Below, in pieces: positions 4,676 through 19,545 of a stretch of DNA of 64,000 nt. The notes beneath the pieces are model-generated. The model made no database searches and was not told the DNA's origin. It saw only the letters and a list, made by a program, of their open reading frames with translations. The number at the start of each line of letters is the position of its first letter. The first letter of the stretch is position 1. The stretch comes from a virus: IMG/VR virus record IMGVR_UViG_3300025572_000008, positions 16,606 through 80,605 of that record. The stretch is one strand, 5' to 3'. A program made the position numbers and the translations under genes.

Positions 4676-4683
4676 TTAAAATA
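4676..4683 (+). promoter_or_regulatory. putative late promoter motif TTAAAATA
   Basis: 25 nt before the portal ATG. Confidence 0.55.
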
Positions 4684-4708: not shown

Positions 4709-6553
4709 ATGTCTTCATCAAACGTTTATTACAATCCGCCACTCATTCCAGGAATGACGGCGGGGACGAATCCGCTCGCTGGCAATTATGCGGCGACGCC
4801 GAATCCTTTCTTCACCGTGGCGAACCAGTTTCTGCCGCGGAATCTGCACGACGTCATACGATGGGCTCGGTTCATCACCTTGCAGTCGCCGGTCACGACC
4901 GAGGTCATTCGGAAGTTGTCCACTTATCCGATCACTGACTTCATCGTTGATACGACGGACAAGGCGGTAAAGGAGCGTTACGAGGAGATTTTCAAGTACA
5001 CTCGCTTGAAATCAGCCCTGCATGACATCGGCTTCGAATACTATACGATCGGCAACGTCTTCCTATCAATCTACTTCCCGATTCAGAGGATGCTTCGCTG
5101 CCCCTCTTGCAGTCAGGAGTACAACGCCAAGACGGCAACGTTTACGACGTTCCGGAACTACGAGTTCCATGGCGTCTGCCCGGCCTGCGGATTCAAGGGT
5201 AATTTCATTCGGAAGGACTCAAAGTCCTTCGACATCAGGGATCTAAACCTGGTGCGATGGGACCCCGTACACATTGCGGTAAACCACAATCCGATCACCA
5301 ATGAGTACGAGTACTACTACAAGATCCCGAACGAAGTGCGTCGCCGAGTCAAGATGGGCGATAAGCTTTTCGTCAACTCGGTGCCCTGGGGCTTCATCGA
5401 AGCCGTCAAAAACAACCAGGACTTCAAGTTTGACAGAGACAACATCTATCATCTGCGCAACATCTCAGCGGGTCCGCTGATCGAAGGAGTTGCTATCCCG
5501 CCGCTGATTTCATTGTTTGGCCTGGTTTTCTATCAACAGACCTTGCGCCGAGGGAATGAAGCCATCGCTCAGGACTATATGACTCCGTTGCGTGTGGTTT
5601 TCCCTCAGGCTCAGACGGGTAACTCCGATCCTGTGATCTCAATCTCCATGCGGAATTTCCAGGCCCGCATGAAGCAGGCTTTCATCGATCACAAACGAGA
5701 TCCAAACCACGTCCTTATCGCTCCCGTTCCGGTTGGCTACCAGGCAATCAGCGGGGAGGGGAAGGCTCTGCTCGTGGCACAGGAAATCGCTCAGGCCGAC
5801 GAGTCGATCCTCCTTAGCCTAGGCGTATCGAGGGAGTTACTGTCCGGTCAGACCAATTGGACGAGCTCAACAATCGGCTTGCGTCTTCTGAAGAACACGC
5901 TCGAGGTCTACGTCGACCAGATCGAGAGCTTCCTTGAGTGGTTCATCTCCCGGGTTTCGAAATACCTGAACCTGAAAACCTGCGATGTAACCCTGGCTCC
6001 GTTCAAGTTGACGGACGACGAGAACCTGCGGCAGATGCTTTTTGCTCTTGCTCAGAATGGAAATTGCTCGCTCTCGACGCTCTACGAGTCCTTCGGCATG
6101 GACTATCAAGAAGACCTGAAAAAGCAGCGTGAAGACGCGGTGGCCACAGCCACCAACCAGGTCGAAACCAAGTTCGAGGTCGAGAGGGCACAATTCCTTG
6201 CGGCCAAGGAAGTCGGCGAGAAATTCGACAAGTCCTCGGGAGATTACCGTGCTGCTCTGGAACAGGCTCAGTACGCCGCCTCACAGCTTGCTGGCGCCGA
6301 TGGTCAGACGCAACGGATGGTGCTCAACCAGCTCAAGATCGAGGATTACGCCAAATATCTCATGGTTGCCAAGCTGCTCGACGAGGAGAACGAGAGGCGG
6401 CAAGAGGAGCTTGCCATGGCTCAGAATCTTGCCGTCGGTCAACCAGGAGAAAACGGGGAAGAAGGGGAGAAAGAGGCTCAGCCGAAAAAGGCGGTTTCGG
6501 ATCGTCCGGAAGGAGGATACCCGCCGGGTCCCGAAGAGCAGCCAGACGCATAA
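4709..6553 (+). CDS. probable portal protein with Zn-ribbon insertion
   Basis: 614 aa; helical N-terminal wing (VIRKLSTYPITDF), EYYTIGNVF segment, clip region and SLGVSRELLSG typical of portals; CPSC...CPAC insertion; acidic disordered tail. Confidence 0.65.
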   Translation: MSSSNVYYNPPLIPGMTAGTNPLAGNYAATPNPFFTVANQFLPRNLHDVIRWARFITLQSPVTTEVIRKLSTYPITDFIVDTTDKAVKERYEEIFKYTRLKSALHDIGFEYYTIGNVFLSIYFPIQRMLRCPSCSQEYNAKTATFTTFRNYEFHGVCPACGFKGNFIRKDSKSFDIRDLNLVRWDPVHIAVNHNPITNEYEYYYKIPNEVRRRVKMGDKLFVNSVPWGFIEAVKNNQDFKFDRDNIYHLRNISAGPLIEGVAIPPLISLFGLVFYQQTLRRGNEAIAQDYMTPLRVVFPQAQTGNSDPVISISMRNFQARMKQAFIDHKRDPNHVLIAPVPVGYQAISGEGKALLVAQEIAQADESILLSLGVSRELLSGQTNWTSSTIGLRLLKNTLEVYVDQIESFLEWFISRVSKYLNLKTCDVTLAPFKLTDDENLRQMLFALAQNGNCSLSTLYESFGMDYQEDLKKQREDAVATATNQVETKFEVERAQFLAAKEVGEKFDKSSGDYRAALEQAQYAASQLAGADGQTQRMVLNQLKIEDYAKYLMVAKLLDEENERRQEELAMAQNLAVGQPGENGEEGEKEAQPKKAVSDRPEGGYPPGPEEQPDA

Positions 6554-6568: not shown

Positions 6569-6880
6569 ATGGCAACCAACAATTTAAACCCGTTCGCCGG
6601 CAACCCTGTACCCGGCGTTTCCAAGATAAGTGCGGTTGAGATTCCTGGGTTCGGACCCTCTCAACCGACTGAGCTCGACCTAAGCCAGTACAAAGTGCGC
6701 TATTCGAAGATCGACCTGGACGATCCGGGCTCCATCGCGGAGCTGGAGATTCTCGAAACCAGGGCGATTCGTAACGAGGGTATTCACATCCTGAACAAGG
6801 ACAAATTCGTCTTCATGGATAAGTACTTCCTCATCGTTTCTTACCTCGAACAAGACCGGAATGCCAATACCAGCCGATAA
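6569..6880 (+). CDS. hypothetical protein
   Basis: 103 aa, AAGGAG SD, sits between portal and RNAP. Confidence 0.75.
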   Translation: MATNNLNPFAGNPVPGVSKISAVEIPGFGPSQPTELDLSQYKVRYSKIDLDDPGSIAELEILETRAIRNEGIHILNKDKFVFMDKYFLIVSYLEQDRNANTSR

Positions 6881-9800
6881 AGCCGACCACCTCCAACGTA
6901 TCTTTTCGTCTCCTAGGGAGCTCAGCCGAAAGGTCGACGCGGCGCTGATCGCAGGTATCCAATCGCAGTTCCCCATTGAAGGTAAGTACTTTACGCTCGT
7001 CGCAGAAAACGTCCGCGCCGAGCCGAAAACGTTCACCCATGAAGACGAGAAGGAAGCCATCCTTAAGTCCAAGTCTCTGACCTATCCAATCAAGGGAGAC
7101 CTTAAGCTCATCGATAAGGCGACCGGAAAGGTCGTGGCTGAGCAGAAGGATTTCTCCTTAATGGATGCCTTCCATCTCACCAACAAGCACACGCTGCTTT
7201 ACAAAGGAAATAACTACTCGGTTGCCAACCAACTCCAGCTTCGGCCTGGAGTCTACACTCGAGCCCGAGAGACGGGAGAGCTCGAAAGCCACGTCAACAC
7301 GGCTACGGGGCGCAGCTTCTCTCTGACTCTCGATCCTCAGACGGGATTGTTCTACGTCCAGATCCAATCCTCCTCGATTCCTCTGGCGCCGCTTCTGACT
7401 AGGGTATTCGGTGTTGGCCCGAAGGAAGTGAGCACGTACATCCCTGTCGAAGTTTGGGATGCGAACTTGAAGGCGAGTGCCGGGAAGGAGACCAAATACC
7501 TTTCTGATCTCTACAACCGACTGGTTTCAACCTCCAAGCGACGCCCAGGGGCCAGCCCTGAAGAGATGGCCTCTCAGCTTAAGGAGGCTCTGGAGAGCTC
7601 CCAACTGTCTCCGCAAACGACGCAAGTGACGTTGGGAAAGGCCTTGGGCAGCGTGACGTCGGAAACCATTCTACGAGCGATGAAGAACCTGGTCGACGTC
7701 CACGCCGGCCGACGTCCTGAGGACAACCGGGACTCCCTGCAGTTCAAGCGTGTCCAGAATCTGCCTGACTTCCTGGCTCGACGCTTCGAAAAGGAGCACC
7801 AATCGGTGACGAACGTTGCTCGGAAGATCAAGTACGAGCTCGATCGCATGGATCGAAACGATCCGAAGATCCGAGGGGCGATTGCTGCCAAGCCGTTCAA
7901 CAAGATCATGTCCAGCTACCTACTGGACAGCAATCTTGTGGCTACGCCTTCCGAGACCAATCCCGTTGAAAGCCTGGAGAATGTGGCCAAGGTGACCGTT
8001 CTGGGAGGTGGCGAAGGTGGCATCGAATCCTCTAGAGGTGTCCCCATGTCGGCCCGTGACATTGATCCCTCTCATCTAGGGATCATTGATCCGAGCCGGA
8101 CTCCGGAATCCGGACATGCTGGTATCGATCAGCGCTTCACCGTTTCTGCTCGCCGGGACGCCGACGGCAATCTCTACGCTCGTGTCCGAGACAACAGTGG
8201 CAAAACTCACTTCCTCTCGGTCCACGAGATGATGACGCACACGATCGGCTTCCCGCACCAAGAGGGGAAGAGGAAGGTTCAAGCACAGGTCAATGGGGAG
8301 CTGAAAGAGGTTGATCGCAGCAAGGTCGACTACTGGCTGGCTGACAGCACGGACATGTACACGATCACAACCAACCTCGTGCCGTTCCTCAATTCCAATC
8401 ACCCGGGACGCCTCACCATGGCAGGCAAGGCCATTCCTCAGGCCCTGTCTCTCGTTGATCGGGAAGCCCCTCTTGTTCAAACAACGAACGACGAAGGCGT
8501 TCCTTTCGTCAAGCTGCTCGGAAAAATCACGTCGACAATCTCCCCGGTGGACGGGGAAGTCACGGCTGTCACTTCGAAGCACATTGAGATCAAGAGCAAC
8601 GACGGTAAGACCCACAAGGTTCCTCTCGTCAAGAACTTGCCCTTTAACATGAAGGGCTTCCTGGACGATGAGACGCCTCTGGTCAAGCCTGGTGACAAGG
8701 TTAAGTATGGCGATGTCCTGGTCGACAACAACTACACGAAGAATGGTGAGCTGGCCATCGGCAAGAACTTGACTGTCGCCTATCTGCCGTACAAAGGCTA
8801 CAACCACGAGGACGGTTTGGTGATTAGCCGGTCGGCGGCCGAGAGCCTCGCTAGCCATCATGCTTACAAAATCGACTACGACGTGCAGGACACGTCCGTC
8901 ATGCGTAAGCAGCTGATCAACCGTTACTTTCCAGGAAGATACACCAAGGAGCAACTGGACAAGCTGGACGACAAGGGATTCGCAAAGGTTGGCGCGGTGC
9001 TGAACCACGGGGATCCCGTCTATGTTGTCCTGGAAAAGCGTGAGCCGACACCAGAAGACAAGATGCTTGGTCGGCTTCATAAGACGCTCGTTGCTCCGTA
9101 TCGTCCGGTTTCGGAAATCTGGACCCATGAAGAGCAAGGAGTCGTTGTCGACGCTCACACTGAAGGGAAGGCTATCCGGATCCTGGTACGATCGAAGAAG
9201 CCGCTTGAGATCGGAGACAAGCTTACCGGCCTGCACGGTAACAAAGGGATTGTGTCTCTGATCTTGGAAGATCACGAAATGCCTTACAACAAGGAGACCG
9301 GAAAGCCAGTGGATCTGTTGCTGAACCCGGCTTCGGTGACGTCCCGAATCAATCTTGGGCAGCTCATGGAGACGGCTGCGGCGAAGATCGCCCAGAAGAC
9401 AGGCAAGCCTTATCTCGTCCACAACTACTCTAAGAGCAGTAACATCGCCGATCTCAAGAAAGAACTCACGGCGCATGGACTGGACGATTCGGAGGTTCTG
9501 GTTGACCCCAAGACCGGCAAGGAGCTCGGCAAGGTTCTGACGGGCCCGCAATACATCGCCAAGCTGTACAAAACCACGGATCAGAACTGGTCGGCTCGCA
9601 ACGTCGGAAGTTACGACAATGCTATGCAGCCGACGAAAGGCGGGGAAGAAGGTTCCAAGGCCGTCGGCTACATGGAGATGCTGGGTCTGTTAGGCTCGGA
9701 TGCCCGCAAGAACCTCAAGGAAATCGCCACGATCAAATCCGAGAAGAATGAGGAGTTCTGGTCTCGTTTCCTGAACGGGCAGCCTCTTCCGAAGCCGAAG

Positions 9801-10283
9801 ATGACCTTCGCTACTCAGAAGTTCTTCGACTACCTGACCGGAGCCGGGATTAAGACGTCCTTCAAGGACGGCAAAATCACCGCGGCACCTTTGACTAGCC
9901 GTGACATTCTGGAAATGAGTCACGGGGAGATCAAGGAGCCGACCTTCATCGATGCGAAGAACCTCGAGCCGGCCAAAGGCGGCCTGTACGACCCGTCCCT
10001 GACCGGAGGTCTGCGGGGCACCCGTTGGACTCACTATACTTTGGCGGAACCCATTCCTAATCCGACTTTCGAGAAGCCAATCAAGAGCCTGCTTGGCCTG
10101 ACTACGAGCGAGTTTAACGGCGTGGTCTCTGGGGCGATAGGCATTCGTCGTGCTGACAAGGGTATCTTCCACCTGCATGACTCGGAAACAGGGAAACACC
10201 TGAAAACGATCAACCTCAAGACTTCGATGCCGGTAGAGGAAAGGGAAGAAGAGGAGAAGGAGCACGACGATGACACTCTATAA
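6861..10283 (+). CDS. rpoB: RNA polymerase beta subunit fused to the beta' N-terminal segment
   Basis: Beta motifs QLQLRPGVY, ARDIDPSHLGIIDPSRTPES, YLPYKGYNHEDGLVIS, GDKLTGLHGNKGIVS, LNPASVTSRINLGQLME, GYMEM..L; followed by beta' N-terminal motifs SHGEIKEPTFI...GGLYDP...HYTLAEP. Confidence 0.95.
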   Translation: MPIPADKADHLQRIFSSPRELSRKVDAALIAGIQSQFPIEGKYFTLVAENVRAEPKTFTHEDEKEAILKSKSLTYPIKGDLKLIDKATGKVVAEQKDFSLMDAFHLTNKHTLLYKGNNYSVANQLQLRPGVYTRARETGELESHVNTATGRSFSLTLDPQTGLFYVQIQSSSIPLAPLLTRVFGVGPKEVSTYIPVEVWDANLKASAGKETKYLSDLYNRLVSTSKRRPGASPEEMASQLKEALESSQLSPQTTQVTLGKALGSVTSETILRAMKNLVDVHAGRRPEDNRDSLQFKRVQNLPDFLARRFEKEHQSVTNVARKIKYELDRMDRNDPKIRGAIAAKPFNKIMSSYLLDSNLVATPSETNPVESLENVAKVTVLGGGEGGIESSRGVPMSARDIDPSHLGIIDPSRTPESGHAGIDQRFTVSARRDADGNLYARVRDNSGKTHFLSVHEMMTHTIGFPHQEGKRKVQAQVNGELKEVDRSKVDYWLADSTDMYTITTNLVPFLNSNHPGRLTMAGKAIPQALSLVDREAPLVQTTNDEGVPFVKLLGKITSTISPVDGEVTAVTSKHIEIKSNDGKTHKVPLVKNLPFNMKGFLDDETPLVKPGDKVKYGDVLVDNNYTKNGELAIGKNLTVAYLPYKGYNHEDGLVISRSAAESLASHHAYKIDYDVQDTSVMRKQLINRYFPGRYTKEQLDKLDDKGFAKVGAVLNHGDPVYVVLEKREPTPEDKMLGRLHKTLVAPYRPVSEIWTHEEQGVVVDAHTEGKAIRILVRSKKPLEIGDKLTGLHGNKGIVSLILEDHEMPYNKETGKPVDLLLNPASVTSRINLGQLMETAAAKIAQKTGKPYLVHNYSKSSNIADLKKELTAHGLDDSEVLVDPKTGKELGKVLTGPQYIAKLYKTTDQNWSARNVGSYDNAMQPTKGGEEGSKAVGYMEMLGLLGSDARKNLKEIATIKSEKNEEFWSRFLNGQPLPKPKMTFATQKFFDYLTGAGIKTSFKDGKITAAPLTSRDILEMSHGEIKEPTFIDAKNLEPAKGGLYDPSLTGGLRGTRWTHYTLAEPIPNPTFEKPIKSLLGLTTSEFNGVVSGAIGIRRADKGIFHLHDSETGKHLKTINLKTSMPVEEREEEEKEHDDDTL

Positions 10284-10479
10284 TCCCAATCGCTTCGTCA
10301 CCGGTCTGACAGATATTCACTATGTGAAGCAGGTGAATCGAAAGACGACTTACCGGGACCCTAACACCGTCCCGGTTTCGTCCGATTCGACGAAGCCTAT
10401 CGTTGTTCGTGAACGTCCGGCGATCGACACGAAGTTCATCCCCGATCCGTTCAAGCCGGAAGACGCTTCGGAACTATAA
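10270..10479 (+). CDS. small hypothetical protein within the RNAP operon
   Basis: 69 aa, AAGGAG SD, fills the gap between two RNAP genes. Confidence 0.5.
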   Translation: MTLYNPNRFVTGLTDIHYVKQVNRKTTYRDPNTVPVSSDSTKPIVVRERPAIDTKFIPDPFKPEDASEL

Positions 10480-10486
10480 TATCGAC

Positions 10487-11662
10487 ATGGCAACTCCTTC
10501 TATTCCTCACGCCGACATCGAAGAACTGACCGTCGGAGGCCAGGCTTTTGAGCAGATGCTGGCTGATGTCGATGTGTCGGCCCAGATCCGAGATCTAAAA
10601 AAGCAAATCCTTGAGACGAAATCTCCGTCAAAACGAGATCAGCTGGTCAAGAAGCTGAAGTACCTGGCAGGCATTCAGAAGTTAGATCTGAAGCCTCACG
10701 AGGCGTACATCCTACATCACATCCCTGTGGCACCGCCCTTGGTTCGACCATCCATACCCATGGGCAATAATCGGATCGAATACGCCGACGTCAATTACCT
10801 CTACAAAGACCACATGCTGGTCAACAACTCGCTAAAGGATATTAAGGACGTCCTGCTGCCTCACCAGACAGTGGCTGAGCGGAAGGCCTTGTACGATGGA
10901 GCCAAGGCTGTATTCGGTCTCGGAGAGGCTATCACGGGAGCCAACCGCGGGAAGGCTAAGAAAGGATATATCAAGCAGATCGCCGGAGACACTGGACCTA
11001 AGGGAGGCTACTTCCATTCCAAGCTGTTGTCGAGGAAGCAAGACTTTTCCGGCCGGGCAACGATCTATGCCGAGCCGAATCTAGGCTTTAACGAGGCGGC
11101 TGTGCCAAAGGATATGCTCTGGACGATGTACGAGTTTCACATCATCCGGGACTTGGTTCGCAACGGCTATGACTACGTCTCAGCGAAGAAGGCTGTGCAG
11201 GCCCGCGACACCGCAGCGACGAATAGCTTTAACAAGCTCATCAAGCAGATCCCGGTGATCCTGAACCGAGCCCCGACTCTGATGCGCACCAACATCACGG
11301 CGCACTATCCTGTGCCTGTCGAAGGCAAAACGATAGGTGTTAACCCGTTGCATCTGCCTCTGTACGCAGGAGACTTCGACGGAGACGCCTTGACAATCCA
11401 TCTTCCTATGACGCCAGAGGCCATCGAGGAAGCTAAGCAAAAGCTTCTTCCTCAAGCTCATATCTACGACTACCGGAAAGGGCAGGGTGCCGCGATGGTG
11501 GCTCCGGGCCACGAGGCGATCATCGGTTCGACCTACCTTACGGAACCTGACCATACTCAGGACGTAGTGGAATTCGAAACTGAAGAGGATGCTCTAAAGG
11601 CCCTGAAGGAAGGGAAGATCAAGGAGAACACGCCGATTCGAATCAAGGCTCACCTGACATAA
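10487..11662 (+). CDS. rpoC: RNA polymerase beta' middle fragment (catalytic DFDGD)
   Basis: IPVAPPLVRP, RKQDFSGRATI, VILNRAPTL, catalytic YAGDFDGD; start moved to MATPSIP. Confidence 0.95.
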   Translation: MATPSIPHADIEELTVGGQAFEQMLADVDVSAQIRDLKKQILETKSPSKRDQLVKKLKYLAGIQKLDLKPHEAYILHHIPVAPPLVRPSIPMGNNRIEYADVNYLYKDHMLVNNSLKDIKDVLLPHQTVAERKALYDGAKAVFGLGEAITGANRGKAKKGYIKQIAGDTGPKGGYFHSKLLSRKQDFSGRATIYAEPNLGFNEAAVPKDMLWTMYEFHIIRDLVRNGYDYVSAKKAVQARDTAATNSFNKLIKQIPVILNRAPTLMRTNITAHYPVPVEGKTIGVNPLHLPLYAGDFDGDALTIHLPMTPEAIEEAKQKLLPQAHIYDYRKGQGAAMVAPGHEAIIGSTYLTEPDHTQDVVEFETEEDALKALKEGKIKENTPIRIKAHLT

Positions 11663-11663
11663 A

Positions 11664-11691
11664 AACCCGGGACTCGGTTAAGCCCCGGGTT
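11664..11691. terminator. terminator between convergent genes
   Basis: AACCCGGG/CCCGGGTT stem with an A-run on the left. Confidence 0.65.
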
Positions 11692-11718
11692 AGATTGATT
11701 CTATTCAGGAGGAGCCAG

Positions 11719-12270
11719 TCAGTCGTTTTCGAACAGCTTTTTAAGTTCCGTGTACAGCTGCCTTGCTGCCATGAGCGGAAGCTGTACCGTGCCCGACGAG
11801 GTCTTCAATGTCAAGGAGGCAATCGGAGAACCGTCGGACGAACCGATTAGATTGCTCCGATCGGCCTTGGACGCCACTCCGGCTTCCTGGGTCTTCGCTC
11901 TTACCGATATCTTTCCTCGTCGAGTCGAAGTGGCTTTTGCCATACGAATCTCCTTCAGTCCGTTGCGACGTGTTCCGTAACTCGGCTCATACGGTTTATC
12001 CGGGACAGCCTCGAACCTAAGGAGCGGCCGTCGCCTCTTGTTGAGCTCCTGAGTCTCTATCGTCCTAAGATGCCCGTTTGCAACCAGAGATTTCAAGGAC
12101 GCATAGACGACGGGTGCAGTGAGATGGGATAGGGCCTCGGTGAGCTCCCTCTCGTTCTGTTCCGGGTGATTCACGACATAGCTGTAGACTTCCTGCGTCT
12201 TGTTGATGAATGGCACAGGCCGTGACGATTCCCCTCTAGACGCCGGGCTAGTTGCAGTCGCTCCGTTCAT
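11719..12270 (-). CDS. putative winged-helix DNA-binding protein
   Basis: 183 aa; VYSYVVNHPEQNERELTEALSHLTAPVVYASLKSLVANGHL has a wHTH-like pattern; basic C-terminal half. Confidence 0.5.
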   Translation of the reverse strand: MNGATATSPASRGESSRPVPFINKTQEVYSYVVNHPEQNERELTEALSHLTAPVVYASLKSLVANGHLRTIETQELNKRRRPLLRFEAVPDKPYEPSYGTRRNGLKEIRMAKATSTRRGKISVRAKTQEAGVASKADRSNLIGSSDGSPIASLTLKTSSGTVQLPLMAARQLYTELKKLFEND

Positions 12271-12331
12271 TTCCAGTAACCCCCTTGGTTGTTTCTACGG
12301 GACTTGAGCTGATTTGAACTTACTACGCTTC

Positions 12332-13222
12332 TTACTCGACGAAATCCAATTCTCCATCTGCATCCCCGTTGTAAACTGGATGCCTTAGACGACCTCCCGC
12401 TCCGCTCGGCCCCAAGGATTTGACCTGTATAAGCTTTCCGATCCAGGCCTTAGGATTGGCCCAGGCCTCCTTGCGCTGAGCCTTCGTGAACCCACTGCCT
12501 ACCGCGGCTACTTCCCTACCTGACCGATCGGTCACTATAACGGCACCCATAGAATCCTTTGGCTTTCCGTTTTTGTCGAACTCCTGAACTATCCGCGAAA
12601 CTCGCAAATTGTAGGTGCCGAAGTGTTTCAGCTTGATCCTACGGTTGCTCGGCTCAGGAGTCGATAGGGAAGTTATTATTACACCCTCTTCCCCGCGTCG
12701 TCGCGTTGAATTTATCAGTTCGACGATGTCGGGTTTTGTGATTTTGGGCTCCGGAACAAACATCATGTCCGGCTTTCCGAAGGCCTGCTCAACCTCTTTC
12801 AGATGAAGCAGTTTCTCTCGATAGGTAGGTAGAGGAGGGTTAATGACGTCGATAAGGACGGCACGGACGGGCCCAGTTTCCTTCTGGGTAGCAATGGCCC
12901 TCTCTGGCAAAGAGTTCAAAATTCCCGACAACCTGGAGTGTGACTCCACGTCATTCTTAGAGTGCCCAGTGTGGATAAGCTCCACGGAGTAGACGTTCCC
13001 GGCCAAGTGAGGCAGCTTCGTTTCAGTCAAATGAGGTAGCTGAGCCGTGCGTTCAGGAAAATGACCCTTAACGGATTGTCGTCGAGAAAAGTAGCGCAAG
13101 GAACCGTCCGGCTCAACTGTTACAAAAAAATGTGCACCATCCCACTTTTTTGTCGCAACGGGGTCGGATATCGTGGTCCAATCGAGTTGATTCGAATCTT
13201 TGTACTGTGCCCTTGTAAACAT
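12332..13222 (-). CDS. ATP-dependent DNA ligase (minimal NTase + OB domains)
   Basis: Motif I KKWDG, motif IV EGVII, motif V IKLK, OB domain VGSGFT...W.G.LIQVK and LRHPVY. Confidence 0.9.
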   Translation of the reverse strand: MFTRAQYKDSNQLDWTTISDPVATKKWDGAHFFVTVEPDGSLRYFSRRQSVKGHFPERTAQLPHLTETKLPHLAGNVYSVELIHTGHSKNDVESHSRLSGILNSLPERAIATQKETGPVRAVLIDVINPPLPTYREKLLHLKEVEQAFGKPDMMFVPEPKITKPDIVELINSTRRRGEEGVIITSLSTPEPSNRRIKLKHFGTYNLRVSRIVQEFDKNGKPKDSMGAVIVTDRSGREVAAVGSGFTKAQRKEAWANPKAWIGKLIQVKSLGPSGAGGRLRHPVYNGDADGELDFVE

Positions 13223-13260
13223 TCAGATAGTATAGCACTGCCCGTAAAGATTGGAGGCTT

Positions 13261-15165
13261 TTATGCTGCGTGTTTTTTCATCAATTTCCTTACCTGATTG
13301 AACAATTCGTCTTTGTCATCACTATGCTCAGTCAGATATTTATCGATACTGTAAGGAGTCTTCGAAAAACGAGATGGCGGTAGCACTGACTGATAGTGCT
13401 CCACATGAACGTGACGCTCCTTCTCCGGGAGATGTTCATGAGATCCGAATCGGGCCCCGCGTCCTATCACCTGTTTGATCTTGGCCTTGTTGAAGTGCGG
13501 CTCGAGCGTTTGGATGAGCTTCGTTCCCTTGAGATCTAGCCCTTCGGCACCCGAGGACGAAACAAGGAGGACCGGCACCTTTCCGCTGTTGTAGTCAGCG
13601 ACGATCTGGTCCTTCTCCTTGCGAGTCAGGCCGCCGGAATACACGCGATGAGGGATCCCTTCCTTCTCGAGGCGTTTGGCGTACTCGTGGACGCCAGAGT
13701 CGAGGTAATTCGAGTACACCAGGCCTCGGAAATTCTTGTCAGAGCTCAGACGTTCCTTCAACCGTGCTACAGCTTTTTCGATCTTCGGCGTATGCGGAAC
13801 TTCGTCGGGGTTGCTAGATAAATGTCTCATTGAGTTTGAGACCTGACGTACTCCGGTTGAAAAAGCGTTAAGAGAAGCCCTCTCTTTCTTATCCAAAGGG
13901 AGATTGTGCCGGACTTTCATACGAAGCAGCCAGGGCAGGTCTCCTTCGACGTAGCGGTAAAGCCGGTGCTGTTCCGGGCTCATCGGAACCTCGACGACCT
14001 CTTCCGTTTGCTTAGGAAACTTGCCTGCCATCTTCGGATCGTCCTTAGCGTCGTAGTAGGAGACGTACTTGCCGAAGATCTTGCCGAGTTCCTTCTCCTG
14101 ATTTAAGACCTTGGCCTCGTCAGGCTTCTTTCCAAGGACTCTCTGCATCAGCGTGGGTTTCTTTCTGATCGTCTTGATGTAGCGATTCTCCATCTCCGCT
14201 GGATCTTCGGGGAGCACGGCCTTGCCGGCCGCCATGTTGACGAGCGGTGATATATCAGAGAGGCGGTTGTAGTTTCCCGTTGCCGTGGCGAGGATTCGCT
14301 TGTCAGAAGAGGAGATAATGTCCCTGAGTTTCCGGGTTCGCTTAGCGTCGATGTTCCTTAGCTTGTGTGCCTCATCGGCCACAGCGAGGGCATACTTACG
14401 CTTAGCCAGCTCGTCGGCCATATTCGTGGCCTTTTCGTAGCTGAGGACGGTAAGGCGATTTCGATCGATATTCAGTTTGTGCTTCTCGATCTCTTTGTCG
14501 ACGTTTGTCTGCAGGCTAGCAGGGGCGACGATGAGAACGTGGCCTTGGGGATTTTCCTTCTGAGCCCGCTCGGCTGCGGTGAGAAACGTCTTGGTCTTGC
14601 CAGACCCGGTGGAATGGTGAAGGACGATGCCCTTCGACTTCTCTAGCTTGGAAAGGGCCTCCTCTTGATGCTTACCGAGAGCCTCGGCTATCTTGACGAG
14701 GTAGCGGTTGCAAGGACATGAAGCAGGCAGCTTCAGGTTGGCTGCTTTCTCGATATATTTGTTCCCGGTCTTCCCGAGGTTCCGAAACAACCACGCCTTG
14801 TCTCCCCATTCGCTGCCCTTCAGCTTCTTTAGTAGAAACTTCTGGCCATCCTTGGTGTGAATGGTCAACTGATCCGAAGTACTGTTTTCTCCAATCCGGG
14901 CCTTACGGACCCAGTCCAAGGTCGTGACTCCGGCTCCATAGGAGCCTTTGGGAATGACAACCTTCTTGCTCAAGGCGTAGTGGCGATCGTGAACCGGCTG
15001 CTCGAAAAGGATGATCGATCGACCAGGCTCAGGCAGCTCCTTCTTCGTGGCCCAGGAGTAAGCCTTATCTCCGGCTACGAGCCGGTAATCCCAGTGCAGT
15101 CCCATTCTGTCCGCTTCGTGACGCTGACGAGTGAACAGAATTTCTTGATCTGGTTGGAGAGGCAT
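13261..15165 (-). CDS. LigD-type 3'-phosphoesterase domain fused to SNF2 helicase
   Basis: N-terminus QRHEADRMGLHWDYRL..SWATKK..HDRHY..IPKGSYGAG (PE domain); helicase motifs HSTGSGKT, VADEAH, ATATG, SSSGAEGLDLKG, QVIGRGAR. Confidence 0.9.
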   Translation of the reverse strand: MPLQPDQEILFTRQRHEADRMGLHWDYRLVAGDKAYSWATKKELPEPGRSIILFEQPVHDRHYALSKKVVIPKGSYGAGVTTLDWVRKARIGENSTSDQLTIHTKDGQKFLLKKLKGSEWGDKAWLFRNLGKTGNKYIEKAANLKLPASCPCNRYLVKIAEALGKHQEEALSKLEKSKGIVLHHSTGSGKTKTFLTAAERAQKENPQGHVLIVAPASLQTNVDKEIEKHKLNIDRNRLTVLSYEKATNMADELAKRKYALAVADEAHKLRNIDAKRTRKLRDIISSSDKRILATATGNYNRLSDISPLVNMAAGKAVLPEDPAEMENRYIKTIRKKPTLMQRVLGKKPDEAKVLNQEKELGKIFGKYVSYYDAKDDPKMAGKFPKQTEEVVEVPMSPEQHRLYRYVEGDLPWLLRMKVRHNLPLDKKERASLNAFSTGVRQVSNSMRHLSSNPDEVPHTPKIEKAVARLKERLSSDKNFRGLVYSNYLDSGVHEYAKRLEKEGIPHRVYSGGLTRKEKDQIVADYNSGKVPVLLVSSSGAEGLDLKGTKLIQTLEPHFNKAKIKQVIGRGARFGSHEHLPEKERHVHVEHYQSVLPPSRFSKTPYSIDKYLTEHSDDKDELFNQVRKLMKKHAA

Positions 15166-15183
15166 GTGACTTGAGGAGGCTAA

Positions 15184-15213
15184 AAAATAACTCTGCGTGA
15201 ACAGAGTTATTTT
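15184..15213 (-). terminator. intrinsic terminator of the upstream minus-strand gene
   Basis: 12-bp stem AAAATAACTCTG/CAGAGTTATTTT with a U-run on the minus strand. Confidence 0.7.
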
Positions 15214-15215
15214 AA
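15208..15215 (-). promoter_or_regulatory. putative late promoter motif TTAAAATA (only minus-strand copy noticed)
   Basis: 42 nt upstream of the PE-SNF2 ATG, embedded in the terminator stem. Confidence 0.45.
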
Positions 15216-15230
15216 GGCAGAGCCTAGTTT

Positions 15231-16409
15231 TTAGCCGAAAGTAACAGCGTCAGCCGGCGGCTCAAGCTTTACGATCTTACGAGTCCTTCGTCGCGTAACG
15301 ACGAGCTCGGGGATTTTGGGAACTTCAGAAGTCTCAGGGCTCTGCTTAATTTCTGGTTTCTTATAGTTTGCGTGGAACCGCTGAATCGAGTCCCGGATCG
15401 TATCAGGCGTGCTGCTCTTAACGAAGAACTCGAACTCCCCGTGGCTCGGAAAAGTCGCTTTGTAAGCCTCGGTGAAGAGGTCGAGATCCTCTCCAGATTC
15501 GATCCCGGTTGCCGCCATCACTGTCTCACTGTTGAATTTGGAGCGGACAAGTTTATTCGAATAATAAGCCTCGGCAACGGCCTTGCAGGAGTCGATAAGG
15601 GAGCTCGTCTCGATGAAGGTCTTAACATGTAGAAGTTGGTGCGGTTCCGGAGCGACAGGCCAAGGCTGAGGGTCCCCCTGTGCCCGACGTCGGAGACCTT
15701 CTTCGGCAACATATTTAACGAATCCTGCGAACGATGGGTCGTTCAATCGAGAGGCATCACCTACATATTCGAAGTTTTCGTTGATGTCGTATGCCGAAAG
15801 AGTGAAAAGATAATTCCTAAGGATTGACGCATAAACGTCTTCCCGTTGTTCGAAACCGTAGTGGAAACTTCCTCCTGCACTGTAATAATAATCCAGCTTC
15901 AGGAAGGGCATAATGGCGCCAAATTTATTGGAGTAAAAGACGTATCCAATATTTTCATCACCATCTTTTAAAACATAGAACAGACCGCTTTGGGTAAGTT
16001 TCAAGTTGTAAGGTTGTGCGAGATATTGGATCAATCCTCCCGCTCCATCGTAACCTAAGAGAGTAGCGTTTAGCGCAACCGTACCGTAAGGGACTTGAAT
16101 AAAATTGACCTGATGGCCTTTGAACTCGAAAGAACTCACATTACCATTCCGGGCCCAAGCTTTAGATTTAAGGGTTTCGGCAAGTGCAGGCTCGAAATCC
16201 TTAGTACCAAACGAGGTACTCAGCACGCCTTGATCAATGACAATATCCAAGCTCGCATATCCATCCTTTGAGAATTTCAGAGCTCTAGTTGGCAACGCAG
16301 AATCTCGCAGTTCAAGCGCACGAAATACCTCGTCTTTGAGACTTTCCCGTTTGCTATGAGTCATCAGCCGCGTGATTCTACATTTTTCTCGAAGCGCATT
16401 ATCGCTCAT
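15231..16409 (-). CDS. hypothetical protein, possibly a degenerate pol-beta-like nucleotidyltransferase
   Basis: 392 aa; YASLDIVID and NGNVSSFEFKGHQVNFI recall phage minimal NTases, but the acidic triad is incomplete. Confidence 0.4.
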   Translation of the reverse strand: MSDNALREKCRITRLMTHSKRESLKDEVFRALELRDSALPTRALKFSKDGYASLDIVIDQGVLSTSFGTKDFEPALAETLKSKAWARNGNVSSFEFKGHQVNFIQVPYGTVALNATLLGYDGAGGLIQYLAQPYNLKLTQSGLFYVLKDGDENIGYVFYSNKFGAIMPFLKLDYYYSAGGSFHYGFEQREDVYASILRNYLFTLSAYDINENFEYVGDASRLNDPSFAGFVKYVAEEGLRRRAQGDPQPWPVAPEPHQLLHVKTFIETSSLIDSCKAVAEAYYSNKLVRSKFNSETVMAATGIESGEDLDLFTEAYKATFPSHGEFEFFVKSSTPDTIRDSIQRFHANYKKPEIKQSPETSEVPKIPELVVTRRRTRKIVKLEPPADAVTFG

Positions 16410-16410
16410 A

Positions 16411-16827
16411 ATGAGTTCCTTTAATGAAAACGGCTTTCTTCGGGACGTGGCTCAGCGAGCCTGTCTCGATATAGCCTTTAAAGATGAAAAGATGCTCCCA
16501 GGGGTAGCAACAATCGGAGCGTTGCCGATCGATATTACCATCAAGGGGAGAAGACTGATTCTGAACGCAGTCGGGGATTTTGGTGGAACGGAAAAGAGCT
16601 TTTCTCTTTGCCAGTCTCGAGGAAAAGGTTTGTTCCGATCCCTTTACCCGCATTTCATCGACGCCATGAAGGCATTTGATCTGGAGCCTCGGATATGGCT
16701 AACGCCGTTGAGCCCAGTCTGGCAAAAAAACTACCCCTTGGTAGAGGTAGAAGCCGGCCCGGTTAAGGGCCATAGGTTCTTCCTGGACGTCACGCAGCCT
16801 TTGCCGCCTGCGCCAGACCGTTCCTGA
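16411..16827 (+). CDS. hypothetical protein, possible GNAT-fold acetyltransferase
   Basis: SRGKGLFRSLY resembles GNAT motif A; lies antisense within a minus-strand block. Confidence 0.4.
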   Translation: MSSFNENGFLRDVAQRACLDIAFKDEKMLPGVATIGALPIDITIKGRRLILNAVGDFGGTEKSFSLCQSRGKGLFRSLYPHFIDAMKAFDLEPRIWLTPLSPVWQKNYPLVEVEAGPVKGHRFFLDVTQPLPPAPDRS

Positions 16828-17122
16828 AAGTTTCGAGATTGAACTTAGGATTGGACGGCACAAACGGCCCTAGCATTCCCGGATCATCATACTGAAGAGT
16901 CGTATAGATGCCTCCGTTATCGTAGATTTTCTTCCGGAGCTCATCGGTGACGACACACATTTTGATTTCACTAGCACGGCTGTAGCATCCTGGCTCTCCG
17001 AGATTCTTGATCCGCCGGATCTCTCTCTGGAGAAACTCCTTGTCGAAAGCGTAGCTAACTCCATCCGGCCGATCCAACCCTCTCTCGTACTCAGTCCAGA
17101 CAGTGCGATAGACGACGTTCAT
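16790..17122 (-). CDS. hypothetical protein
   Basis: Start MNVVYRTV with GGAG SD. Confidence 0.7.
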   Translation of the reverse strand: MNVVYRTVWTEYERGLDRPDGVSYAFDKEFLQREIRRIKNLGEPGCYSRASEIKMCVVTDELRKKIYDNGGIYTTLQYDDPGMLGPFVPSNPKFNLETFRNGLAQAAKAA

Positions 17123-17163
17123 GATCTCTCCTTGAAAATCCAACCATCTCGAGGCGATTCAGG

Positions 17164-17361
17164 TCAGTCTCCTGTCCATTTGGACAGCCACTGCTTCGGT
17201 ATGTGCATGGATACGCAGGGCGTATCCTTGCCGAGCACGACCACAGTGACCGCGCGGCTGTCGTCCGCCATCTCCACGCACCGAGCGGCGACGACCATGC
17301 CGTGCCACTTATTGCCGGGTTGCAGTGTTGACGGGCAGTTGATGAAATATCTGGTGTACAT
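17164..17361 (-). CDS. small hypothetical protein
   Basis: Start MYTRYF with AAGGAG SD. Confidence 0.6.
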   Translation of the reverse strand: MYTRYFINCPSTLQPGNKWHGMVVAARCVEMADDSRAVTVVVLGKDTPCVSMHIPKQWLSKWTGD

Positions 17362-17397
17362 GCAGTTCTCCTTGGTATCAGGCCGCAACCAGCCGGG

Positions 17398-17595
17398 TCA
17401 CGGCGACGATATGGCCGTGCTCCGGGGGTGGCGGACCGCGACGCCGCAATTCACCGGATCCGAGCAGCGAAGTACGCCGACAGACCTACAGTTATGGCAA
17501 TAGGGTTTTGGTGCCGGCGGAGTTTCGTTATGACCTCGAGCAGTCTTGGACATAGAGTAAACATACCGTCGGTTGTAATTCAAAGCAGGAATCAT
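17398..17595 (-). CDS. small hypothetical protein with Cys motif
   Basis: Start MIPAL with AAGGAG SD; CHNC...C....C. Confidence 0.55.
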   Translation of the reverse strand: MIPALNYNRRYVYSMSKTARGHNETPPAPKPYCHNCRSVGVLRCSDPVNCGVAVRHPRSTAISSP

Positions 17596-17667
17596 TATTA
17601 GCTCCTTCAAAGCAAGAATGAAAACGACCGCTCTATAATGATTAGAGCGGCAGTTCTTTGTACAATA

Positions 17668-17675
17668 CTTATACC
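17668..17675 (-). promoter_or_regulatory. putative early promoter motif GGTATAAG
   Basis: CTTATACC upstream of the minus-strand block starting at 17595; back-to-back with a late motif. Confidence 0.65.
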
Positions 17676-17687
17676 ACTACTCTGTTC

Positions 17688-17693
17688 TAAAAT
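17688..17693 (+). promoter_or_regulatory. putative late promoter motif TAAAAT
   Basis: 19 nt before ATG 17713. Confidence 0.45.
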
Positions 17694-17712
17694 GGATAGA
17701 GAAATCCAAGCC

Positions 17713-19545
17713 ATGTCCACTGATAAGATCACAACTCCGGGTGCTCTTCTGCTTAAGCACTCTATGCCGACTGAAGCGGCAAAACAGAATTTCAATCTCT
17801 ATCGCCCTCTGGACAAAGGAGGGATGTCGGACCTCGTTCAAATGCTGCTAAAGCATGGAGGTCCGAATGCGCATGAGCACATCAACAACCTGGCCAAGCT
17901 CTTCTTCAACAAGGCTACTGAAATCGGAGCTTCGACGCCTCTGTCCGACTACATCAACGAAAGCGACGAACGCCAGGCACTCATCAATGAGTTCGATTTC
18001 AAGGCTCAGAAGATCCTGAACGACCCGAATAAGTCTCGAGCAGAGAAACAGCGTGAGCTAGGTGAACTCGTCTCTCAATACGACAAGAGGATCGAAAAGC
18101 AGAACGTCGAATATCTCGTCAGCAAAGGTTCGATGGCGGCGAAGATGGCCCGTACCGGCGCTCGAGGCAACCCGAAGCAACTGGCCGTGGGTACGTCGAC
18201 GCCCCTGTTGTCATCCAATCTGAAGGGGGAACTCGTCCCCGTCGTGATCAAGAAGAGCTTTGCCGAAGGCATGAGCCCGGCCGAGCACATCGCCATGTCC
18301 TACATGGGCCGCGGCAACACCGTGTTGACTCAGCTATCCACGGCCCTTCCTGGGGCCTTGTTCAAACAGCTGTCCCCGACCGTCTTCCATGAAACCATCA
18401 CAATCGATGATTGCAAGACCAAGAACGGAATCATGGTCCCGATCGAGGACAAGAAGAGGCTTGTTGGCAGCTACACCGCGGACACGAACCGTCTTATCGA
18501 CGAAGCCTACTACAAGGAACTGAAGGCTTCAGGAGCCACAGCCGTCAAGGTTCGCAGCGTGATGACCTGCGAGGCTCCTCAGGGCGTCTGCAAGCATTGC
18601 TACGGTCTAATGGGTAGCGGCAAGAAGCCGGAAATCGGGGAGAACGTCGGCGTCATCGCCGCTCAATCTGTATCCGAGGTTCTGACCCAAGCCATGCTGT
18701 CGACCAAGCACAAGGCTACGGTTGGCGAGCGCAAGGGGAACGCTTATGAGCAGGCGTCCAATCTTCTGAGAAACCCGGCCGATAACTTCAAGGACGAGGC
18801 GACGATCGCTGAAATCAACGGTCGGATTACTGACATCAAGAAAACCCCTCTAGGTGACTACCAGGTCTTCGTCAACGAGAAGGGTCACTTCGTACCGCAA
18901 ACTCAGGGTTTGAAGGTGAACATTGGTGACAAGGTTCGCAAAGGCGATCCTCTGTCGACCGGAGTGATCAATCCTCGCAAGCTCGTTGCGCTCAAAGGTC
19001 TTGGGGCTGGAAGGCAATACATGTCTCAAGAGCTTCGAGGGATCTATGGCGGAGGGCTGGATCCTCGCCACTTCGAAGTGATTTCAAAGAACCTCATGAA
19101 ATACGTCGAAGTCATCGATCCAGGTCATACCGGCTTCCTTCCCGGGGATAAGGTCGACGTCAATGCTGTGGCGAAATATCTCAAGAAGAGCAGCCGAGAA
19201 GTTCCGATCGATCAAGCCGAAGGCCATATCCTATCTCACGGTGTGCATGAGCTTACGCCAGGCACCCTGCTCGATGCTAACCATATCGAAGATCTGAAGA
19301 GGGTTGGCGTCAAGACCGTGAAGGTTTCTGATAACGGCTTGAAGGTAGCTCCGATTGTGCCGGGCCTGCAGACGGCGAAGCTCTTGGATCCGAACTGGAT
19401 TTCCAAGCTGTCATTCTCTCGACTGAAGGATACGCTTCAAGAAAGCGCGGCGCTCGGGGCCGAATCTCCGGAACACAGCACGGATCCCATCGCGCCTTAT
19501 ATCATCGGTCGTGAGTTCGGCGAAGGCGAGCACGGTCAATACTGA
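17713..19545 (+). CDS. rpoC: RNA polymerase beta' C-terminal fragment
   Basis: MARTGARGN, bridge helix SFAEGMSPAEH...STALPGAL, Zn site CEAPQGVCKHCYG, trigger loop GVIAAQSVSEVLTQAMLSTKH; start moved to MSTDKIT. Confidence 0.93.
   Translation: MSTDKITTPGALLLKHSMPTEAAKQNFNLYRPLDKGGMSDLVQMLLKHGGPNAHEHINNLAKLFFNKATEIGASTPLSDYINESDERQALINEFDFKAQKILNDPNKSRAEKQRELGELVSQYDKRIEKQNVEYLVSKGSMAAKMARTGARGNPKQLAVGTSTPLLSSNLKGELVPVVIKKSFAEGMSPAEHIAMSYMGRGNTVLTQLSTALPGALFKQLSPTVFHETITIDDCKTKNGIMVPIEDKKRLVGSYTADTNRLIDEAYYKELKASGATAVKVRSVMTCEAPQGVCKHCYGLMGSGKKPEIGENVGVIAAQSVSEVLTQAMLSTKHKATVGERKGNAYEQASNLLRNPADNFKDEATIAEINGRITDIKKTPLGDYQVFVNEKGHFVPQTQGLKVNIGDKVRKGDPLSTGVINPRKLVALKGLGAGRQYMSQELRGIYGGGLDPRHFEVISKNLMKYVEVIDPGHTGFLPGDKVDVNAVAKYLKKSSREVPIDQAEGHILSHGVHELTPGTLLDANHIEDLKRVGVKTVKVSDNGLKVAPIVPGLQTAKLLDPNWISKLSFSRLKDTLQESAALGAESPEHSTDPIAPYIIGREFGEGEHGQY

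Follow-up and report, generated by a model that had tools for sequence, protein, structure and literature searches.

Three open reading frames (ORFs) in a virus sequence from IMG/VR, here called ORF1, ORF2 and ORF3, resemble the bacterial RNA polymerase subunits beta and beta'. They lie in a stretch of 64,000 nucleotides (nt), positions 16,606 to 80,605 of record IMGVR_UViG_3300025572_000008, which was analyzed as a whole and is termed the window; all coordinates below are those of the window. As the best overall explanation of the data, the three ORFs probably constitute the catalytic core of one bacterial-type RNA polymerase owned by the phage, within a large polymerase family, confined to phages, that was founded on the fusion of beta to beta'. 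The three-gene form is genuine and inherited, and the family of phage polymerases to which it belongs has been little described. The window corresponds to the minus strand of positions 89305-153304 of an IMG/VR virus record of 168,216 bp, estimated to be ~92% complete. Among cultured phages, Salmonella phage Arash (180.8 kb) and the Vibrio phages D69, D148 and D181 are the nearest relatives. In the literature outside subscription journals, including a 2026 jumbo-phage review, we found no description of a phage polymerase that is fused, lacks the zinc finger and is associated with sigma factors, and genes of the fused family are at present annotated merely as "beta subunit" or "hypothetical".

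Anatomy of the three polymerase genes

The features of the region are collected in Table 1. When aligned with E. coli rpoB and rpoC and with the proteins of Arash and D69, the beta portion of ORF1 is complete and compact, without the lineage-specific inserts of E. coli, and it has the double-psi barrel (Rpb2_6) and the flap of a bacterial-type core. Sequence searches of the PDB gave bacterial beta subunits as the top matches (E 1e-72), and the AlphaFold model of ORF1, with a mean predicted local distance difference test score (pLDDT) of 88, resembles bacterial beta chains with template modeling (TM) scores of 0.70-0.78. There is only one beta match in the whole genome. As elsewhere in the family described below, the beta C-terminus is joined straight to the beta' N-terminus; no linker intervenes, and beta' resumes from about residue 18 of the E. 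coli protein. The N-terminal zinc-binding domain of beta' (CxC...CxxC) that belongs to a bacterial-type core is absent. In the alignment with E. coli rpoC a gap of 32 residues covers exactly C70, C72, C85 and C88, and the deletion point falls between G1053 and T1054 of ORF1 (nt ~10019/10020). The beta' N-terminal part is followed by a clade-specific insert of ~45 residues, and the acidic tail with which ORF1 ends is not matched by anything in the fused proteins of Arash or D69.

ORF2 begins at the ATG at 10487, not at the TTG at 10403, and spans beta' from the clamp helices through the catalytic double-psi barrel, in which the catalytic motif reads AGDFDGD (nt 11366-11386). Its matches in the PDB are beta' and cyanobacterial gamma subunits (E 1e-48 to 1e-52), the best of them being a cyanobacterial gamma. 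Whereas ORF2 supplies DxDGD, the alignment places in ORF3 the bridge helix, a trigger loop that lacks the SI3 insert, and the second zinc site of beta' (C814, C888, C895 and C898), which is kept. Both bridge helix and trigger loop are diverged, the former strongly; in the trigger-loop region (18400-18560) the histidine is kept but the Met, Arg and Phe near it are changed, the E. coli stretch M-R-T-F-H reading L-S-T-K-H. The N-terminus of ORF3 searched alone gave only chance ankyrin matches in the PDB. Translation of ORF3 probably starts at the ATG at 17713 rather than at 17638, where the open frame begins, because the homologues in Arash (gp216) and D69 favor the former and the ATG at 17638 sits in a hairpin. 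This hairpin (17628-17650) has a perfect stem of 8-9 bp and lies ~65 nt 5' of the likely start, with the first ATG of the long ORF3 frame in its loop.

An initial annotation, made from the sequence without database searches, had proposed an intact beta fused to the beta' N-terminus, a beta' in three pieces, a deleted clamp zinc domain, the AGDFDGD variant, and a C-terminal beta' fragment 6 kb away. The Pfam matches and the alignments with E. coli rpoB and rpoC bear out each of these points: the three beta' pieces are the end of ORF1, ORF2 and ORF3, the zinc domain is missing with its four cysteines, and the distant fragment lies behind a block of minus-strand genes.

Table 1. Features of the polymerase region and its surroundings, in window coordinates
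Feature	Coordinates	Strand	Basis and remarks
ORF1, 1,140 amino acids (aa)	6861-10283	+	Pfam Rpb2_3, Rpb2_6 (E 2e-62), weak Rpb1_1 at residues 1010-1048
ORF1 beta part, residues 1 to ~1003	6861-9869	+	Alignment with E. coli rpoB reaches the beta C-terminus
ORF1 beta' N-terminal part, residues ~1004-1107 (E. coli beta' ~18-140)	9870-10181	+	Alignment; pLDDT 77-88
Acidic tail at the ORF1 C-terminus (residues 1108-1140), with stop codon	10182-10283	+	Predicted disordered, pLDDT <50
ORF1-ORF2 spacer, 203 nt	10284-10486	+	No Rfam family; fold z-score -1.6
ORF2, 391 aa, beta' middle piece (E. coli beta' ~165-565)	10487-11662	+	Pfam Rpb1_1, Rpb1_2
ORF3, 610 aa, beta' C-terminal piece (from E. coli ~566 on)	17713-19545	+	Pfam Rpb1_5; B. 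subtilis beta' E 3e-44
Portal protein gene	4709-6553	+	PHROG portal families; directly 5' of the polymerase genes
TTAAAATA, promoter-like motif	4676-4683	+	Ahead of the portal gene
Conserved 103-aa ORF	6569-6880	+	Overlaps the ORF1 start; between portal and polymerase genes
Intervening non-polymerase block, 5 ORFs	11719-17143	-	Pfam and PHROG

The fused family and other polymerases

A profile-free search with ORF2 against 1.84 billion cluster representatives returned 1,345 matches at E<=1e-30. We mapped the four segments of the window polymerase on the best 150 of these, and nearly all proved to be beta-beta' fusions. They fall into size classes of ~1,450-1,520 or ~1,800 aa, which end where ORF2 ends, and of ~2,000-2,100 and up to 2,876 aa, which cover the whole of beta and beta'; a few consist of ORF2 alone. 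Ten representatives were looked up, and all are metagenomic. At least 331 loci in IMG/VR carry relatives of ORF2, and the best 80 of them, which were classified, comprise 28 three-piece and 52 two-piece forms. More than 20 further IMG/VR contigs have a single ORF of 2,021-2,945 aa. Some library proteins of 966-1,019 aa that appear to join ORF2 and ORF3 are probably truncated calls of one-chain genes, since their nearest IMG/VR relatives are one-chain; an IMG/VR scan with one metagenomic protein, P0038, found no locus. In a set of 50,697 phage records, the family is represented only by the cultured phages Arash, D69, D148 and D181.

All 21 family sequences that were aligned show the zinc-finger gap, even those at 36-40% identity. 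The ORF2 segment ends within -5 to +4 residues of the same point in 76 of 79 scorable loci, so that beta' is broken ~87-91 residues after DxDGD, as in the window, or is continuous in the one-chain forms. In 109 fetched loci representing all three grades, distant one-chain members included, the polymerase gene has a portal homologue upstream of it on its own strand, and the window phage likewise has its polymerase downstream of the portal gene and sigma-70-family genes in its genome. Loss of the motif Asn is mostly limited to the clade of Arash and the window phage, the deeper members having mostly NADYDGD, NLDYDGD or NADFDGD.

A tree was made by a quick search on one domain of ~380 columns, with five bacterial sequences and five from the mReC phages considered below. 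It placed 24 of 25 family sequences in one clade (98 in the Shimodaira-Hasegawa-like approximate likelihood ratio test, SH-aLRT). The one-chain forms are basal, the two-piece forms nested (97) and the clade of Arash and the window phage lies inside these (100); the bacteria and the mReC sequences form separate clades. This order would fit a stepwise fission of a single-chain ancestor. Only the ORF1-ORF2 cut is recent; the beta-beta' fusion, the loss of the zinc finger and the ORF2-ORF3 break are ancestral to the phage family. The initial annotation had called the split unusual and the break points the enzyme's own; the layout is, however, not peculiar to one phage, since fusion, zinc-finger loss and ORF2-ORF3 break are family-wide and the ORF1-ORF2 cut is common to 28 relatives. 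Its suggestion of an independently acquired enzyme goes beyond the tree, in which the family forms its own clade outside the five sampled bacteria but which settles neither donor nor timing.

The closest comparison is with Arash (gp206 and gp216, with sigma factors gp10 and gp196; OQ632216; PMC10585845) and with D69, D148 and D181, which at 50-56% protein identity share the fusion, the zinc-finger deletion site and the break before the beta' C-terminal piece. The motif Asn is replaced in this group also (AADYDGD), the portal gene and a small ORF lie directly upstream, and the sigma pair is orthologous. The Arash group differs in that beta, beta'-N1 and beta'-N2, the equivalents of ORF1 and ORF2, form one protein of ~1,525 aa (a single ORF in both Arash and D69), whereas the window phage is cut again at beta' ~145-165 to give three polypeptides. 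The Arash paper goes no further than to label the genes as beta and beta', and mentions neither the fusion nor the missing zinc finger nor the absence of alpha (PMC10585845). More distant are uncultured one-chain and two-piece members (L113 and L071 from IMG/VR; P0034 and P0017 from metagenomic proteins), which have the same fusion, zinc-finger gap and portal synteny at 30-40% identity, in genomes of ~180-200 kb. These differ in having one ORF of 2,021-2,945 aa or two pieces, and most keep the Asn (NADFDGD, NADYDGD or NLDYDGD); none has been cultured or described.

Polymerases of the phiKZ/AR9 type (PMC7598289) resemble that of the window phage in being phage-encoded beta and beta' homologues without alpha or omega, in a beta' that is cut after the catalytic barrel, and in having a virion form that is injected. 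Variant catalytic motifs occur in that type as well, SGDFDGD in BpSp and NGDFDGD in SPN3US, and from DxDGD to the end of the N-terminal beta' piece there are 52 residues in BpSp and 70 in SPN3US, as against 91 in the window phage and 87 in Arash. However, the phiKZ/AR9 enzymes also have a beta split into two or three polypeptides, exist as two paralogous sets and are accompanied by no sigma-70-family gene (PMC7598289, PMC7824862), whereas in the window phage beta is one continuous segment of ORF1 and a single gene set is accompanied by two sigma-70-family genes. No phiKZ/AR9 enzyme is found among the 60 listed (of 81) PDB matches to ORF1, in which bacterial beta reaches E 1e-72. The initial annotation was thus right to set this polymerase apart from phiKZ and AR9, given the unsplit beta, the one gene set, the sigma genes and the different beta' break.

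The mReC polymerases (Weinheimer & Aylward 2020, PMC7481178) likewise belong to metagenomic tailed phages and have bacterial-like beta and beta' subunits that can be aligned with the cellular enzymes. The published lists give separate beta (~900-1,560 aa) and beta' (~890-1,390 aa) proteins with no fused pattern, and NADFDG is conserved (PMC7481178). One mReC contig (L151, IMGVR_UViG_3300017989_000062) has a beta' of 900 aa followed by a beta of 1,069 aa, at ~25% identity, and a search of the window phage genome for a Gp23-type capsid gave no match. Membership in mReC was rejected on the grounds of the separate genes, the ~25% identity, the separate clade in the tree and the absence of a Gp23-type capsid match. 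According to the mReC table, L151 carries two different beta/beta' pairs on its 149 kb (PMC7481178), and one pair was compared here.

Cyanobacteria and plastids likewise have a beta' that is cut between catalytic barrel and bridge helix, giving gamma (RpoC1) and beta' (RpoC2). Judging from alignment offsets, cyanobacterial gamma would end ~50 residues farther along (near E. coli ~617) than ORF2 (~565). The cyanobacterial enzyme differs in that it keeps the zinc finger and has separate beta, alpha and omega subunits. The polymerases of two other cultured phages, Vibrio phage Va2 and Rhizobium phage TM30, have zinc finger, NADFDGD and an unsplit beta' all kept. The RpoBC proteins of Helicobacter and Wolbachia are fusions of a full-length beta to a full-length, zinc-finger-bearing beta', and they occur alongside alpha and omega; the phage family, in contrast, has neither the zinc finger nor alpha genes, and the compact ones among its one-chain members measure ~2,020-2,160 aa.

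Sigma factors, alpha and the virion

The initial annotation reported neither a sigma nor an alpha gene. This is correct for the window, but the genome as a whole encodes two sigma-70-family proteins, both outside the window, and no recognizable alpha. The first sigma (262 aa) has regions 2 and 4 and is 39% identical to Arash gp196; the second (235 aa) has regions 2 and 3 and is 43% identical to Arash gp10. Sigma region 2 was also matched in four of five complete relatives. Sigma region 4 docks on the flap tip of beta and region 2 on the clamp helices of beta', and the phage core has segments that align to both. Pfam profiles for alpha (PF01000, PF01193) and omega (PF01192) had no match in the 168-kb record, and alpha PF01000 had none in the five complete relatives (180-198 kb). 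In the virion proteome of Arash, gp206 is the top protein by spectra, and gp216 and the sigma factor gp10 were detected too (PMC10585845).

The polymerase is most likely carried in the virion, directed by sigma factors and free of alpha. ORF1, ORF2 and ORF3 would assemble in trans into a core of ~2,140 residues devoid of the clamp zinc finger and of inserts of the E. coli type. The tether between beta and beta' would make the assembly platform provided by an alpha dimer unnecessary, and in the window clade the beta'-N1 piece attached to beta may itself serve as that platform. We suggest that late expression of the portal operon yields the enzyme, that it is packed in virions together with the 235-aa sigma, as the Arash proteome indicates, and that the packaged enzyme would be injected with the DNA and transcribe the early genes. 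The 262-aa sigma would then redirect the same core to later promoters, so that two sigmas share a single core, whereas phiKZ has two polymerases. Without the zinc finger and the NADFDGD Asn, the enzyme probably behaves differently in RNA exit and termination and in the selection of sugars; effects of zinc-domain and motif-Asn loss on termination and sugar selection are known from work with E. coli mutants. For the whole family, we put forward only tentatively a self-sufficient, minimal bacterial-type holoenzyme of beta-beta' and a sigma-70-family factor, free of alpha and omega, in which the tether replaces the alpha-dimer platform and one packed and injected core runs the entire phage program under two sigmas; the forms in one, two or three pieces would have arisen by natural fission from a single-chain ancestor.

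It is possible, although we think it unlikely, that the phage core still requires alpha, and perhaps omega, from the host and that the tether of beta to beta' is incidental. All cellular multisubunit polymerases use alpha-like subunits (PMC7598289), and host alpha would have been invisible in the Arash proteome, for which a phage-only database was used. However, the phiKZ and AR9 cores function without alpha (PMC7598289), no alpha gene was found in any complete family genome searched, and an enzyme that is injected and acts at once would benefit from self-sufficiency. Less plausible is that the two sigmas reprogram the host polymerase, as T4 gp55 and SPO1 gp28 do, leaving the phage core to work with some other, unrecognized specificity factor or with none. 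Many large phages without a polymerase of their own do encode sigmas for the host core (PMC7824862), and one of the five complete family genomes has no sigma-70 region 2 match, yet the presence of gp10 alongside the polymerase in Arash virions, the conservation of both sigmas between Arash and the window phage, and the core segments aligned to the sigma-docking flap tip and clamp helices argue against it.

Several points weigh against the preferred account. Alpha and omega were sought with Pfam profiles, which a very diverged subunit or a non-homologous assembly factor would escape, and the record searched is ~92% complete. The Arash proteome was searched against phage proteins only and also lists ribonucleotide reductases (PMC10585845), so that abundant proteins may have been carried over, and a host alpha may be packaged along with the polymerase, in Arash virions. 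The family tree, moreover, is a quick one on a single domain of ~380 columns with only five bacteria.

If the preferred account of a sigma-directed, alpha-free polymerase is true, the one-, two- and three-piece forms map the sites at which a multisubunit polymerase tolerates being cut. The phiKZ/AR9 enzymes tell little about the bacterial enzyme because they are highly diverged and have no sigma homologue. The fused family, which aligns with bacterial RNA polymerase throughout, would be a closer model, having kept factors of the sigma-70 type while dispensing with alpha, omega and the zinc finger of the clamp. A compact polymerase that possibly assembles by itself would offer a route to what alpha and the zinc domain are needed for, and the arrangement suggests a strategy of infection in which a holoenzyme is injected and one core is used with two sigmas. 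These readings can be tested in cultured phages, of which there are four: Arash, D69, D148 and D181.

The ORF1-ORF2 break and the surrounding genes

ORF1 and ORF2 are separated at a point equivalent to E. coli beta' ~145-165, inside the ~45-residue insert specific to the clade. In nine IMG/VR relatives identified first, and in all 28 from a larger scan (54-79% identity), ORF2 is a stand-alone gene with the same start point. Between the stop of ORF1 and the start of ORF2, loci of these relatives have ~0, 78 nt, 210-350 nt or 1.3-3.1 kb; in the last class a second ORF accompanies a head-decoration-like gene in the gap. At least three loci have no ORF1 within 8 kb of ORF2. Because the relatives share the break with such different spacers, we regard the split as real. 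The idea that it is no true gene boundary, owing to an assembly error, a pseudogene, or a spliced or bypassed spacer that restores an Arash-like protein of 1,525 aa, has in its favor the single ORF of Arash and D69 and a window spacer of just 203 nt, but it is scarcely credible when 28 independent loci have the same break, when structural genes occupy some of the spacers, and when the ORF1 and ORF2 sides have gained a tail and a start codon of their own. An intron or recoding at the spacer was also rejected, as there is no match in Rfam and the fold is no better than that of shuffled sequences. In the quick tree the fused Arash group is nested among the split forms, which requires two changes; a single origin of the split was not rejected by the approximately unbiased (AU) test (p 0.21).

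The split site acts as a hot spot for insertions. At one related locus (L010, 3063-5983) ~2.9 kb, with a gene for a 370-aa head-decoration- or fibre-like protein and an ORF of 217 aa, is inserted exactly between ORF1 and ORF2, and equivalent insertions of ~2.9 kb are present in the close relatives L009, L011-L013, L016 and L017. The same gene is also broken, separately and independently, in Vibrio phages D181 (L002, 13552-14500) and D148, where an annotated homing endonuclease gene interrupts the fused polymerase gene inside beta, yielding ORFs of 514 and 1,006 aa.

The copy of TTAAAATA at 4676 is likely to mark the start of a transcription unit composed of the portal gene, the small ORF, ORF1 and ORF2. 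The motif looks like the -10 element of a late promoter. It occurs 8 times in the window, where 0.63 copies are expected, and 9 times in the whole 168-kb genome; the window sites (4676, 15208 on the minus strand, 20392, 28531, 31666, 34998, 48781 and 49658) are mostly 5' of structural genes. A whole-genome motif scan found no copy upstream of either sigma gene, and therefore the motif provides no clue to their timing.

The 103-aa ORF between the portal gene and ORF1 has homologues just 5' of ORF1 in 23 related loci, and a short ORF occupies the same position in Arash and D69. Its model (pLDDT 77) has a strand-helix-strand-strand fold that gave no PDB match at E<=0.001, and because of this fold without a significant match we do not consider the protein omega-like; its candidacy as a substitute for omega or alpha is unsupported. 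The minus-strand genes lying between ORF2 and ORF3 are for a winged-helix protein resembling TrmB, a small ATP-dependent DNA ligase, a fusion of LigD phosphoesterase to an SNF2 helicase, and proteins of 392 and 117 aa. In Arash, other minus-strand genes are found at the corresponding place.

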